A stretch of 64,000 nt of DNA from an uncultured Gemmatimonadales bacterium. GTDB taxonomy: Bacteria > Gemmatimonadota > Gemmatimonadetes > Gemmatimonadales > Gemmatimonadaceae. Position numbers and translations under genes: made by a program. Numbering within the stretch: position 1 is the stretch's first letter; every line of letters begins with the position of its first letter. Below the pieces are notes generated by a model. That model ran no database searches and was not told the origin of the DNA. It worked only from the letters and a program-made list of their open reading frames with translations. The stretch lies in contig OY969695.1 in the NCBI GenBank assembly GCA_963701965.1, positions 1,376,001-1,440,000 of the forward strand, written 5' to 3'. Below are positions 32,152 to 37,720 of this stretch, piece after piece.

Positions 32152-33708
32152 ATGCGGCGATTTCTGATCATCGCCGGTGTGTGCGTGCTGGTGTTGATCG
32201 CCGGGGCAGTGATCGCCCTGCGGGCGCTCGCCGGAGGTGCGGGCAAAGACAAGATCGCGTCGGCGCTCTCGACCATGCTCGAGATGCCCGTCACGATCGG
32301 GGACTTGTCGATCGTGCTTTTTCCGGCGCCTGCAGTCAGCGCCGAGCACATACGCGTGGGATCCGGCGACAGTACCGCGGCGCCGGGCGTGAGCATCGGA
32401 TCGGTTCGCATCGCCCCCACCCTGCTGTCGTTTCTTCCCGGTCGAACACGCTCGATCCGGCGCATCGATCTCGTCGGTCTCACCGTGTCGATTCGGCACG
32501 ACCGGTCAGGACGTTGGCTGGTCCCCGTGCCACCGCCATCGGCGGCGCCGCCCGCCGCCCCCGGGGCCCAGCCCGCGGCGAAAACGCCAGGGGGCCTCGA
32601 CCTCAACGCGTTGCACGTGCGCCGTGGGAGTGTCCGGGTAGTGGACGATGTCATCAATGCGGTCACGACGATCACGGCGATTGACGCCGATCTCGCGGTC
32701 ACGGCCGGAGCCGTGTCGATTCCCGGTTTCTCCGGGCAGCTCGGGCAGACGGTGGTCACGGGATCCGCGAGCTACGGGGCGTCGGGGATCGCGCTCAACC
32801 TGGCGTCCAAATCCATCGCCAATGCGGATTTGCCCGCGCTCTTTCGGTTGGCCGGCATGCAACCGTATCCCGGGCTCTCGATCAGCGGGGCGGCGCCCTT
32901 CTCCATGACGACGGCGATCGGATCGGATCTCCAGTCGTTCACGGTGACCGGCAAGGCCGCTATCGCGCAGGTGCAGCTCGGCGCCATCGCGCTGCAGAGT
33001 CTTCAGGCGCCGTTTCGATTCGACAAGAAGATCTTCACGATGGATCCCATGACGTTCACGCTGTACAAGGGGCGTGAGACGGGGCGGGTGTCCATCGATA
33101 TGTCGGCGGCGAAGCCCGTCTATGCGATTCGGACGTCCATCGCGGGGTTGGACGTCGATCAGGCGCTCTCGGCGACCACGACCATGAAGCACACGTTGCT
33201 CGGCATTGCCCGGGTGCAAGCCGACGTCAAAGGGGCCGGGGCGACGTCGGCGGACATCCAGCAATCATTGGCCGGGACCGTCGGATTCGCCGTCAACCAC
33301 GGCATCATCACCAACTTTCCGCTGCTCTCGGCCATCAATCAAGCCGTCGGCATTACGGGCGGGAATACGAAAGAGACCGCGTTCGACAGCCTCACCGGTA
33401 CCGCGGTCATCGCCAATGGAAAAGCGCGGACGAACGATCTCACGCTGCGCGCTGGTGGGCTCACCATGACCGGCAAAGGCACTTACGGGCTGGATCAGAG
33501 CCTCGACATGCAGACGACGACGACGCTTGCGGCGACGGCCGCGCCGGCCATCCGGCAGATGCTGCACGCGCAAGGAGAAGTGGCGATTCCCGTGCATGTC
33601 ACCGGCACGGCATCGGCGCCGAAGTTCGCCGTCGACGTTCAGACGCTGGCCAAGAAAGGACTACAGGATCAACTCAAGCAGGGCCTCAACAAGCTCCTGC
33701 CGCACTAG
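32152..33708 (+). CDS. AsmA-family protein
   Basis: N-terminal anchor, beta-taco-like repeats, C-terminal FDSLTG..IANG...IPVHVTGT.SAPKF. Confidence 0.8.
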   Translation: MRRFLIIAGVCVLVLIAGAVIALRALAGGAGKDKIASALSTMLEMPVTIGDLSIVLFPAPAVSAEHIRVGSGDSTAAPGVSIGSVRIAPTLLSFLPGRTRSIRRIDLVGLTVSIRHDRSGRWLVPVPPPSAAPPAAPGAQPAAKTPGGLDLNALHVRRGSVRVVDDVINAVTTITAIDADLAVTAGAVSIPGFSGQLGQTVVTGSASYGASGIALNLASKSIANADLPALFRLAGMQPYPGLSISGAAPFSMTTAIGSDLQSFTVTGKAAIAQVQLGAIALQSLQAPFRFDKKIFTMDPMTFTLYKGRETGRVSIDMSAAKPVYAIRTSIAGLDVDQALSATTTMKHTLLGIARVQADVKGAGATSADIQQSLAGTVGFAVNHGIITNFPLLSAINQAVGITGGNTKETAFDSLTGTAVIANGKARTNDLTLRAGGLTMTGKGTYGLDQSLDMQTTTTLAATAAPAIRQMLHAQGEVAIPVHVTGTASAPKFAVDVQTLAKKGLQDQLKQGLNKLLPH

Positions 33709-34691
33709 GACGCGCGGGCCAACCGCGCTGCGCGGTAGTCGGCCGGCGGGGCGTGCTCGGCCAGGAACGCCAGCAGCGCGTCGGCGACATCATTCCCGCG
33801 CTGGAACCGCTCATCCGGGTTTTTCGCCAGGCACTTCATGATGATCGCGGCCAGGGCCGGCGGCGTGCGGGAGTCGACCACTTCCGGCGGCACCGGCGCC
33901 TCGTGCACGTGCTTGTAGCCCACCGAGTACGAGTCGGCGCCGTCGAACGGGGGGAAGCCAAGCAGCATCTCGTACAGCATGACGCCCAGCGCATAGAGGT
34001 CGCTGCGGCCGTCGACCAAACGGCCCATGGCCTGCTCGGGTGACATGTAGTGCGGCGTGCCCATCGCCCGTCCCGTCCCCGTGAGCCGCCCGTGCCGGCG
34101 GGCCGTGGCGATGCCGAAGTCGGTCACTAGCGCGTAGCCGTCGTCATCGAACAGGATGTTGTCGGGCTTGATGTCGCGATGAATGACCCCGCGGCGATGC
34201 GCGTAGTCCAGCGCGCAGGAGACCTGCGCGGTCACCGTCGCGGCAAAGGCCGGCGCGACCGTCCGATCGCGGACCAACCGGTCGGCGAGCGACGCGCCAC
34301 CGAGGAACGGCATGAGGAGGTACACGACCTCCTCGGTCGAGCCGTAGTCGACGATCGGACAGATGTGCGGGTGCACCAGATGCGCGGCCGCCTCGGCCTC
34401 GCGCCGAAAGCGCTCCCGCATCTCGGCCTCGCGGGCCAAGTGCGCGTGCAACACTTTGATGACCAGCGGGCGCCCCAACTGCACATGCTCGGCGTAATAC
34501 ACATGCGCCATGCCGCCCGAACCGAGGCAATGCACGATCCGGTACCGGTTGCCGGTCATGCGCCGGAGCTGGCTGATCTCGGAATCCGGCGCCTCGGCGG
34601 GGCCGCCAGAGATCGGCGGGAGCGCGACCGAGCAGCGCGCACATTGCACGGCGACGGCCCGGTTCCACGTGCCGCAATCAGGGCAGAACAG
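33705..34691 (-). CDS. Cytoplasmic Hanks-type Ser/Thr kinase with N-terminal zinc ribbon (probable CTG start)
   Basis: FCPDC...CARC; LGSGGMAHVY, HRDIKPDN, DFGIA, GTPHYMSPEQ; no TM; GGAGG 9 nt before CTG at 34691. Confidence 0.92.
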   Translation of the reverse strand: MFCPDCGTWNRAVAVQCARCSVALPPISGGPAEAPDSEISQLRRMTGNRYRIVHCLGSGGMAHVYYAEHVQLGRPLVIKVLHAHLAREAEMRERFRREAEAAAHLVHPHICPIVDYGSTEEVVYLLMPFLGGASLADRLVRDRTVAPAFAATVTAQVSCALDYAHRRGVIHRDIKPDNILFDDDGYALVTDFGIATARRHGRLTGTGRAMGTPHYMSPEQAMGRLVDGRSDLYALGVMLYEMLLGFPPFDGADSYSVGYKHVHEAPVPPEVVDSRTPPALAAIIMKCLAKNPDERFQRGNDVADALLAFLAEHAPPADYRAARLARAS

Positions 34692-34696
34692 GGCGC

Positions 34697-36183: not shown

Positions 36184-37116
36184 CTAGCGGAGCGCACGGA
36201 GGTGCGCGACGCACGCCGCGCCCACGCGGTCCGGCGCATACCCGCCCTCCAGCGCGCTCACCACCCGTCCGCCGCACCAGACGGCGGCCCGGGACACCAT
36301 CTCCAGGGTAAGTCGTTCCACATCAGGGATTTCGAGGGTAAACCCCCCGAGCGGATCCCCGCGCAACGAATCGAAACCGGCCGAGATGAGCACCAAGTCG
36401 GGCACAAACCCCTCCGTCGCCGCGTCGACGGCCCGGAGCAACGCCGATACGTAGACGGCCGCATCCAGCCCGGCGGCCATGGGGACGTTCCAGACCGAAT
36501 AGTGCTGACCGTGGTCCGCGGCCGCGCCGGTCCCGGGGTACCAGGGCCACTGGTGCATCGACACGAACCGGATATCGGGTTCGGCCTCGACGAGCGCCTG
36601 GGTGCCGTTGCCGTGGTGGACGTCCCAATCGACAATGAGCACCCGCTCGACGCCGTGCCGCTGTCGGGCGTAGCGGGCGCCGAGGGCCACGTTGCCGAAG
36701 AGGCAGAATCCCATGGCCTCGTCCGGCATCGCGTGGTGTCCGGGCGGGCGGACCGCGGCGAAGCTCCGGCTCGATCGCCCGTCAAAGGCCCGGTCAATGC
36801 CGTCGAAGACGCAGCCGGCGGCAGCCGTGGCGGCAGCGAACGAGCCGGGGCTCACCACGGTGTCCGGTGTGAGGTTGACCGGCCCGGTCGCGCCCTCGAT
36901 GAACGCCGCGAGGTGCGCGACGTAGCCGGGGTCGTGCGCCATCGCCAGCTCGTCGACCGTGGCGTGGCGGCCTTCCACATGCTCAATGTCCTGGAACAGT
37001 TCCAGATCGTCGCGCAGGGCCCGCGTGATGGCCCGCAACCGGCCGACGTGCTCGGGGTGACCCCAGCCGGTATCGTGCCGGCCGCAGTCGGCGTGCGAGA
37101 TGAAGGCCGTCGTCAG
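36184..37116 (-). CDS. Histone deacetylase family (Zn-dependent) protein (probable CTG start)
   Basis: HDTGWGHPE, RPPGHHA, GFCLFGN, DWDVHHGNGTQ, SAGFD..GDPLG, LEGGY; conserved HPE N-terminus extends to CTG overlapping upstream TGA. Confidence 0.93.
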   Translation of the reverse strand: MTTAFISHADCGRHDTGWGHPEHVGRLRAITRALRDDLELFQDIEHVEGRHATVDELAMAHDPGYVAHLAAFIEGATGPVNLTPDTVVSPGSFAAATAAAGCVFDGIDRAFDGRSSRSFAAVRPPGHHAMPDEAMGFCLFGNVALGARYARQRHGVERVLIVDWDVHHGNGTQALVEAEPDIRFVSMHQWPWYPGTGAAADHGQHYSVWNVPMAAGLDAAVYVSALLRAVDAATEGFVPDLVLISAGFDSLRGDPLGGFTLEIPDVERLTLEMVSRAAVWCGGRVVSALEGGYAPDRVGAACVAHLRALR

Positions 37117-37454
37117 CTGCGAACCGGCCGGCGTCGCCGAAAAGTCAGGAGAAAAGTGGAGCCATCGCGGGCGCCCGCGTCCGTGAGCGACACGTTTTCA
37201 TCCAACACTTCGTAGCCGTTGATCTTCATGACGAAGTCGGACGGGCTGCCGGACCGGTAGAGCGCATCGAGCGCGCGGATTTTGAGCGCGAGCACCGGTT
37301 CAGCGGGCGGAATTTCGACGCGCACCGTGTCCCAGACTTCGGGCATCTCCACGCGCAGCGTGATGCAGGATGCGGTTGAGGACGCGGCCGACGCGCACAG
37401 GCGAATGGCGTCCGGCCGGGAGCGCAGGGACGCCACGAAAGGAGTGATGGTCAC
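37113..37454 (-). CDS. Ubiquitin-like (beta-grasp, YukD/EsaB-like) protein
   Basis: ITLRVEM..VWDTVRVEI....VLALKIRAL...FVMKINGYEVLDENVSLTDAGARDGSTFLL mirrors the ubiquitin fold pattern; no C-terminal GG. Confidence 0.65.
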   Translation of the reverse strand: MTITPFVASLRSRPDAIRLCASAASSTASCITLRVEMPEVWDTVRVEIPPAEPVLALKIRALDALYRSGSPSDFVMKINGYEVLDENVSLTDAGARDGSTFLLTFRRRRPVRS

Positions 37455-37720
37455 GCGGAAGGCAGGGTCGTGAAGAAGCGCGCGATCTGCGCGTCGAACA
37501 TGTAGGTCGAGCCGGTGACGGTGGTCGCGCCGCCGTCGGCGGGAGCGACGCCGATCACCAACTCCTCACCACCCTGGCCGCGGAACGTCACATACGCCGG
37601 GCCTTCCTTCTCCAAAAACGCGGGATACAGGCTGTTCCGGCGGGCGAAGAATTGCTTGGCGGCCGCGAGCACCTCGGGAGGCCCGAGCGACGTACGCGTG
37701 GTGACGAGTGTCGGGGGCAT
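37451..37720 (-). CDS. Small hypothetical protein
   Basis: 89-aa ORF, GTGA overlap with next gene, TAAGTT 6 nt before ATG. Confidence 0.7.
   Translation of the reverse strand: MPPTLVTTRTSLGPPEVLAAAKQFFARRNSLYPAFLEKEGPAYVTFRGQGGEELVIGVAPADGGATTVTGSTYMFDAQIARFFTTLPSA

Follow-up and report, generated by a model that had tools for sequence, protein, structure and literature searches.

The locus and its six genes

In a 64,000-nucleotide stretch of DNA from an uncultured Gemmatimonadales bacterium (contig OY969695.1, positions 1,376,001 to 1,440,000; hereafter the window, in whose coordinates all positions are given), six minus-strand open reading frames (ORFs) lie head to tail. In the order in which they are read they encode an 89-residue protein without a Pfam or NCBIfam match (SH, for small hypothetical; 37720-37451), a 113-residue protein with a GTG start and a ubiquitin fold of the YukD/DUF2604-like kind (UBL, for ubiquitin-like; 37454-37113), a 310-residue Zn-dependent class II-like deacylase of the histone deacetylase family (HDAC; CTG start; 37116-36184), a 268-residue class I S-adenosylmethionine-dependent methyltransferase (36159-35353), a 219-residue standalone member of the GvpL/F family (GTG start; 35356-34697) and a 328-residue Hanks-type Ser/Thr kinase with an N-terminal Cys4 ribbon (CTG start; 34691-33705). 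All six proteins are soluble, and the two CTG starts are placed where the homologs begin, at the same motif. From SH to the kinase the five junctions are a GTGA overlap, a CTGA overlap, a 24-nt gap, a GTGA overlap and a 5-nt gap, just as a first-pass annotation of this DNA had described them, and its family assignments are also right, with Pfam matches over cut-off for four of the proteins (Hist_deacetyl E 1e-81, Methyltransf_11 7e-16, GvpL_GvpF 5e-26 and Pkinase 2e-47) and a predicted ubiquitin fold for UBL. That annotation took the six genes for one post-translational modification or signalling system. The actual finding of the locus, in place of a six-gene system, is the pair formed by SH and UBL. 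Standalone ubiquitin-fold proteins of bacteria are known mostly from defence islands, sulfur transfer and type VII secretion.

The SH-UBL pair in the Gemmatimonadales

Comparison was made within one and the same set of 151 genomes from the phylum, comprising the window's own genome, 105 others of its order (31 from family f1, 72 from f2 and 2 from f3) and 45 from outside the order, f1 being the window's family (32 genomes with its own) and f2 the sister family; the genomes are related, and the counts given here are descriptive. SH is found in all 105 of the order's other genomes and UBL in 104, each as a single match per genome except in two genomes for SH and in one for UBL. Gene order was examined in the window and in 65 of its 105 relatives within the order, namely all 31 from f1 and 34 of the 74 from f2 and f3, the latter picked for long contigs. 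SH and UBL are adjacent in 65 of these 66 loci, and the tight coupling of the small gene to the ubiquitin-like gene that had been claimed earlier is borne out by an in-frame ATGA or GTGA overlap in 52 of 54 loci.

The UBL fold is predicted to be a ubiquitin-type beta-grasp (AlphaFold2 confidence score pLDDT 88), with ubiquitin, NEDD8, ISG15 and BilA among its Foldseek matches. At the sequence level the window protein stays below the cut-off for YukD/DUF2604 (PF08817, 16.7 bits against a cut-off of 27), and 26 of 52 UBL members match PF08817 weakly (E<=0.5); some relatives carry PF08817 on record, and the ESM Atlas matches of UBL also point to YukD/DUF2604. Ub-RnfH matches none of the 52. Residues W41, K58, K77, G80 and R108 are invariant, K77 in 52 of 52 sequences, and in a weak per-domain alignment K77 falls at the position of ubiquitin Ile44. 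The tail reads RRRPVR(S), or RRxPVR across the order, and Gly-Gly is seen in the last 12 residues of none of 54 sequences. E1, E2 and JAB proteins were not recognised among the recurrent genes of the order's loci (no genome-wide E2 search was made), and the window's genome holds no JAB match over cut-off, a MoeZ-like ThiF being present elsewhere in it. Neither was a WXG100 protein found in this genome, which is 95% complete, and no genes of a type VII secretion system (T7SS) were recognised in the loci.

SH is predicted with higher confidence still (pLDDT 92) as a beta-alpha-beta4-alpha fold of the TBP-like class, that of KA1 domains or half a helix-grip, and carries a conserved RGQGGEE loop. 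Its structure matches, by VIA Z, are Rv2186c (10.4), a CIPK14 domain (10.2), Chk1 KA1 (9.7) and Kcc4 KA1 (9.2); START-type and KA1 matches together span 10.4 to 9.1 and are tied. Residues 86-165 of the Thermus protein 1v8c, a C-terminal domain fused to MoaD and presumably that known as DUF1952, also match (Z 8.3, root-mean-square deviation 2.1, 71 residues aligned). In the ESM Atlas SH finds only Gemmatimonadota clusters without a family name, and a START match is seen in one of 56 SH members, weakly. A role for SH as a KA1-type regulator of the adjacent kinase was considered and dropped: SH is present in 72 of 72 sister-family genomes and the kinase ortholog in none. A profile match of SH to polyubiquitin, in which RGQGGEE is laid over the LRGG-MQ junction, was likewise set aside as a sum over repeats in which no single stretch is significant, and P0189, P0197 and P0209 were excluded because their many matches are short and repeated along a long protein (of the three, P0189 was inspected).

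SH and its partners beyond the order

With a broader profile, SH is found outside the order in three clades. In each of 10 genomes from f5, f6 and f8, SHa is the gene immediately ahead of moaD-moaE (nine of these loci show MoaD, and the tenth has MoaE 330 nt downstream). SHb stands before a UBL ortholog in 8 of 8 f5 and f6 genomes, the orthology of the UBL proteins being given 98.7% by hhalign; MoaD and UBL are not detectably related (2.9%). SHc is known from 15 genomes of f4 and f7. Against SHa the SH of the order reaches E 3e-20 to 2e-12, against SHb 5e-9 to 1e-4, so that SHa is the better match, and the moaD of the window's genome has no SH before it, which together suggest a change of partner for SH, between MoaD and a protein of ubiquitin type. 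In an SH tree the order's copies group with the moaD-linked ones with support of 86/64, and the order of events is not resolved by the tree. The f8 SHa proteins (L071:8484-8789, L072:10922-11227 and P0224) end in a conserved GPGVSGAG tail that resembles the PPVSGG end of the adjoining MoaD.

A scan of named genomes for SHb-linked UBL gave 50 loci of the Palauibacterales type, records of Ca. Palauibacter included. SH directly precedes UBL in 47 of them. Of the other three, L201 is a clean in-frame fusion, L195 is an artefact of a frameshift, and the last is a weak match that is unrelated. The fusion L201/P0279 is complete and in frame and belongs to a three-sequence cluster whose members come from independent assemblies (one metagenome-assembled genome at NCBI and two from Logan); a second complete in-frame fusion, P0280, has a different linker and is found in both NCBI and Logan. 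Other apparent cases were rejected as frameshift or start-calling artefacts, namely the seeming SH-UBL fusions P0195, P0200 and P0206 and the long UBL matches P0277 and P0278, and a search of longer proteins with the order's UBL profile returned no true fusion, which is weak evidence. The Palauibacterales-type UBL (L156-L204; L095-L101) ends in a single C-terminal Gly, as ...YPxFxG, in 49 of 49 sequences and has Glu at the K77 position. In the longer loci examined, ThiS, ThiF-rhodanese and JAB genes lie a few kb from it in a divergent operon.

Gene order and the conserved housekeeping string

Across the order SH and UBL sit within a string of genes, and the check on conservation of gene order that the first-pass annotation had proposed comes out divided: the order of genes is collinear in 65 of the 66 loci (L032 is the sole rearranged one), but the six-gene unit is not kept. 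The master order runs purA, glyS, an optional M3 peptidase gene, an optional histidine kinase or YncE gene, SH, UBL, then optionally a small membrane gene or a MoxR operon, followed by HDAC, optional methyltransferase, CorA, GvpL/F, kinase and epimerase genes, and priA. Downstream of SH, within the distance fetched, UBL is met in 65 loci, HDAC in 63, priA in 54, the epimerase in 38, the kinase in 29, CorA in 15, GvpL/F in 13 and the methyltransferase in 12, and glyS lies upstream of SH in 57. Between UBL and HDAC there is a MoxR/DUF58/DUF4159 operon in 13 loci and a small membrane gene in 18. The former, 7 kb long and of the composition MoxR-DUF58-BatA-DUF4159, is inserted immediately behind UBL in 13 of the 32 loci of the family (L039, L040, L043, L045, L047-L050, L146, L148, L149, L154 and L155). 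All six genes are contiguous in four loci, the window and three others, and in two of the four GvpL/F is cut to 126 residues.

In the window the string includes, upstream of SH, glyS and an M3-like peptidase (38991..41892, minus) and a histidine kinase of GAF-HisKA-HATPase architecture (37730..38965, minus), directly downstream of which, at 9 nt, SH lies as annotated earlier; a histidine kinase in that place is found only in the window's family. At the other end, priA (29868..32087, minus) is separated from the kinase by an inserted AsmA-like gene on the plus strand (32110-33708), whose stop overlaps that of the kinase and whose GC content is below that of its flanks. Since the tight run continues upstream of SH (9 nt to the histidine kinase, 25 nt to the M3 peptidase, an overlap with glyS, 0 nt at purA/ypdA), and since the genome has 60 runs of at least six genes spaced at 30 nt or less, spacing marks no six-gene unit here: 1719 of 3166 co-directional pairs are within 30 nt of each other and 585 have a 4-nt overlap, in counts from a rough gene caller that often calls starts short and so undercounts. 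Close spacing is therefore ordinary in this genome and sets no boundary around the six genes. A promoter and terminator scan of the locus gave chance-level hits only, and Rfam has no match in the 26-50 kb part of the window.

The HDAC-methyltransferase-CorA-M24 peptidase-GvpL/F-epimerase-priA part of the string occurs in other orders without Ubl or kinase. In five GvpL/F loci from other orders HDAC is present in four, the methyltransferase in three, an M24 peptidase in four, the epimerase in four and priA in all five, and SH, UBL and kinase in none. The block in the window is thus a composite, in which an old HDAC-to-priA string was joined to the SH-UBL pair, one family gained a kinase and the intervening genes were deleted, and the contiguity of the six follows from the loss of CorA, M24 and epimerase genes from the ancestral string; a search of this genome gave no close match to the epimerase or to CorA.

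The same is apparent from the distribution of the single genes. The kinase ortholog (E<=1e-115) is present in 31 of 32 f1 genomes and in none of the 119 others, and so in 31 of the 106 genomes of the order; it was not found in G089. The methyltransferase is patchy, at 21 of 151 genomes and 17 of 106 in the order. GvpL/F is also found in 21 of 151, with 15 in f1 (15 of 106 in the order) and none in the 72 of f2. The full set of six is present in 5 of the order's 106 genomes (G000, G038, G070, G072 and G082), and every gene except SH is absent singly somewhere. HDAC was not found in G112, which is 96% complete and retains SH-UBL, nor UBL in G097, where SH abuts HDAC. Because presence is patchy and members drop out singly, the six genes are to be seen as gained and lost separately and not as one system. 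A system of all six genes would have been of greater consequence, but it finds no support in the distribution data.

The deacylase, methyltransferase, GvpL/F protein and kinase

HDAC is the genome's only PF00850 protein, and its catalytic residues (the double His, the Asp-His-Asp Zn ligands and the catalytic Tyr) do not vary among the 22 aligned sequences. Its best single-domain PDB match is 5zmp, labelled 'lysine deacylase' (E 7e-60), which we take to be CddA. The gatekeeper motif is PLG, with Leu in 22 of 22. The pocket residues listed for CddA, a lysine deacylase of the cyanobacterium Synechococcus (PMC12224894), number six and are matched here by H127, H128, F137, Y193, L256 and Y293, and HDAC lacks the PEG or PIS gatekeeper of the polyamine deacetylases (ApaH cluster 4 and HDAC10; PMC11532494). 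Given this pocket and the PLG motif in place of PEG or PIS, HDAC is likely a lysine deacylase and not a polyamine deacylase, in keeping with the role in which it was first cast. The methyltransferase fares otherwise. Annotated as part of a protein-modification unit, it has small-molecule O/N-methyltransferases as its nearest relatives: natural-product and phosphoethanolamine methyltransferases are its best PDB profile matches, the peptide methyltransferase LahSB comes at rank 9, and protein-methyltransferase families of the PrmA/PrmC kind are absent from its Pfam and its top 25 NCBIfam matches. It likely acts on a small molecule or a lipid.

GvpL/F lacks the central insert of the copies in gas-vesicle clusters, and it is indeed the orphan it had been called, largely independent of gas vesicles: of the 151 genomes 20 have this standalone subtype, and 14 of those 20 show no match to GvpA (PF00741), which itself is present in 7 of the 151. 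In all 15 family genomes that have GvpL/F it lies directly before the kinase. Its C-terminus (34697-34720, minus) reads VRLQFGG, much like a ubiquitin tail. As a ubiquitin-like tail this was rejected, GG being present in only 5 of 11 full-length family sequences (the penultimate Gly in 10 of 11). The genome has a separate gvp cluster (C1:2.966-2.972 Mb). This cluster (G000:C1:2966500-2972000, L105) is of actinobacterial type, with three GvpL/F genes, GvpG, GvpK and three GvpA-family genes; a double ArsA-type ATPase is part of it, and a GAF histidine kinase comes after the cluster. Four genomes (G034, G070, G072 and G129) have gvp genes no more than about 10 kb away from SH-UBL. In the window's kinase the Gly loop, VAIK Lys, HRD, DFG and APE motifs are intact and a CxxC-10-CxxC ribbon occupies residues 3-20. 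It is one of 39 Ser/Thr kinase ORF matches in the genome, four of which have an N-terminal Cys4 ribbon.

What the pair may do

The explanation that best accommodates these observations, and to which a probability of roughly 0.6 may be given, is that the six genes are a slice of a housekeeping string in which SH and UBL, coupled in translation, likely act as a non-covalent 1:1 adaptor pair and not as a conjugation system. SH would bind its beta-grasp partner as a cap or assembly chaperone, the contact probably being on the conserved basic face of UBL that is made up of R34, K77 at the Ile44 position and the RRRPVR tail. The heterodimer would serve a core cellular process as an adaptor or assembly factor, by analogy with what YukD is for its secretion system. 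HDAC is likely the cell's general CddA-like lysine deacylase, working separately, the kinase likely a later family-specific insertion and GvpL/F likely a relic scaffold kept without gas vesicles.

Several points weigh against such an adaptor pair. Kinship of the genomes means that the counts are not independent. The TBP-like fold of SH is a common one, with 20 chains at Z>=8 of which START and KA1 domains are the best, and PF09189 (DUF1952) matches 0 of 56 SH members, SH also being outside the 7 matches that this genome has at E<=1. In the SHc clade no beta-grasp gene lies within 1.5 kb in any of the 15 loci, so that SH can work without an adjacent Ubl. The fusions are confined to the Palauibacterales clade, where L195 proved an artefact, and fusion is evolutionarily cheap, one base change turning the 4-nt overlap into a fusion. 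Charge complementarity is weak, with mean net charges of -2.2 for SH and +1.0 for the UBL core. The presence of HDAC downstream of SH-UBL in 63 of 66 loci also leaves room for a link with HDAC.

Whether SH and UBL touch at all can be doubted, as they might be co-translated neighbours whose pairing is inherited gene order. The entire string is indeed highly conserved in order, SHc has no beta-grasp neighbour, and RatA and RatB overlap in like manner, yet the purified proteins gave no complex (10.64898/2026.05.04.722385). However the pair persists in two orders whose neighbourhoods differ, two protein clusters have it as a fusion, and it has a counterpart in the SH paralog that precedes an unrelated beta-grasp gene, which makes the absence of contact rather unlikely. 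Also unlikely is a three-part module in which SH and UBL recruit or regulate the deacylase, or in which Lys77 of UBL is its acylated substrate. It draws on the constancy of HDAC after the pair (in two of the three loci where it is missing the contig is broken), on the CTGA overlap of UBL and HDAC in the window and on the invariance of K77 at the Ile44 position; but in 31 of 66 loci other genes come between UBL and HDAC, none of 50 Palauibacterales-type UBL genes has HDAC within 2.5 kb and K77 is Glu there, G112 and G097 each keep one side without the other, and priA and glyS are nearly as constant as neighbours. As a client of the SH-UBL pair HDAC is the best local candidate, at similarly low odds.

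Joining all six genes into one modification or signalling system, as was first proposed, seems very improbable. Their invariant order and tight spacing in the window and three other loci, the solubility of all six proteins and the regular placing of GvpL/F directly before the kinase would suit it. But the full set is held by only 5 of 106 genomes, 16 of the 31 genomes with the kinase lack GvpL/F and all 5 GvpL/F loci from other orders lack the kinase, neither was found in the sister family, the methyltransferase is small-molecule-like, and the contiguity is explained by gene loss from the ancestral string. Least probable is that this ancestral string of HDAC, methyltransferase, M24 peptidase, GvpL/F and dipeptide epimerase serves small-molecule or peptide recycling, with HDAC working as an amidohydrolase whose substrates are acylated amino acids or peptides. 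The string recurs in four other families, the epimerase follows HDAC in 38 of the order's 66 loci, and small molecules are the substrates of some cluster 1 enzymes (PMC11532494), but the HDAC pocket is that of CddA at 6 of 6 residues, with PLG and not PEG or PIS, and the members of the string are lost independently; in the window's genome neither the epimerase nor CorA gave a close match.

A bolder extension of the adaptor pair, improbable as it stands, would make SH a dedicated beta-grasp cap that switched between MoaD and ubiquitin-type partners, and SH-UBL an undescribed core module of the Gemmatimonadetes. The Palauibacterales Ubl with its single Gly could be activated and conjugated, and the Gemmatimonadales Ubl, having lost the Gly, would be a non-covalent adaptor in which the Lys at the Ile44 position is acyl-switched and reset by the neighbouring deacylase.

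What is clear is that the conserved two-gene module of a Ubl and its partner is real, and apparently undescribed: open papers on Gemmatimonadota ubiquitin-like proteins, on DUF1952, on YukD/EsaB/DUF2604 among the matches listed, and on gas vesicles, kinases or deacetylases gave no description of the locus. A pair that is single-copy and order-wide, with fusions and a MoaD partner switch, points to a recurring pairing of TBP-like or helix-grip domains with beta-grasp proteins, as in RatA-RatB and 1v8c, and it offers two small, soluble proteins as a target open to experiment, in a phylum that is abundant and has hardly been studied.

Comparison with known systems

A close parallel is RatA-RatB (PasT-PasI), a START/helix-grip protein with an RnfH-family Ubl, in which a helix-grip-type gene likewise overlaps a downstream beta-grasp gene in a housekeeping neighbourhood (PMC1779556; 10.64898/2026.05.04.722385), and the best fold match of SH is a START-type protein. 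In contrast SH has 89 residues where the START matches have 129-150 and likely lacks a full lipid pocket, UBL shows no Ub-RnfH match, and the phylum is a different one. The function of RatB is left open in 10.64898/2026.05.04.722385. RnfH with a START protein (Table 1, row 8) and YukD with T7SS are tabulated in PMC1779556, and the SH-UBL pair is not among the associations given in the accessible text of that paper. In Thermus thermophilus 1v8c a beta-grasp domain is joined to an SH-fold domain, and SH paralogs precede moaD, but there is no PF09189 sequence match, the domain order is reversed, and the partner here is of ubiquitin type and not MoaD.

YukD/EsaB is a non-conjugated ubiquitin-fold assembly factor of type VIIb secretion (PMC12637312; PMC1779556), which UBL resembles in being a ubiquitin fold that is likely not conjugated and, in half of its members, in a weak YukD match; the WXG100 and T7SS genes that go with it are what was not found here. 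With Bil and the E1-E2-JAB conjugation systems UBL shares the ubiquitin-type fold, BilA being one of its Foldseek matches. Unlike them it has no Gly-Gly, no E1, E2 or JAB was recognised in the Gemmatimonadales loci, and SH-UBL is distributed as a single-copy core pair; PADLOC gives generic kinase and methyltransferase matches only, and none for SH or UBL. HDAC is like CddA and the cluster 1 bacterial classical deacylases in being a single domain of about 310 residues with the same catalytic and pocket residues, and differs from CddA in its gene context. GvpL/F has the PF06386 match over cut-off and the C-terminal GPWPPY motif of the GvpL and GvpF accessory proteins, but in the window it is without the central insert, lies outside the gvp cluster and belongs to a subtype mostly kept without GvpA.

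Other features of the window

Upstream of glyS, purA (41893-44256, minus) is frameshifted near its 3' end, around 42900-42950, with the normal C-terminal residues in another frame and the reading frame extending into a downstream YpdA/TrxB-like gene. The frameshift may be an assembly indel, and the two genes are mostly separate in relatives. Downstream of priA, a conserved gene without a Pfam match (28347-28925, minus) recurs in that place in 35 of 60 loci. Positions 1-8000 and 62001-64000 have a GC content of 62-64% against about 69% elsewhere, and the last 2 kb show a strong negative GC skew. The genome carries a tRNA-Sec gene.

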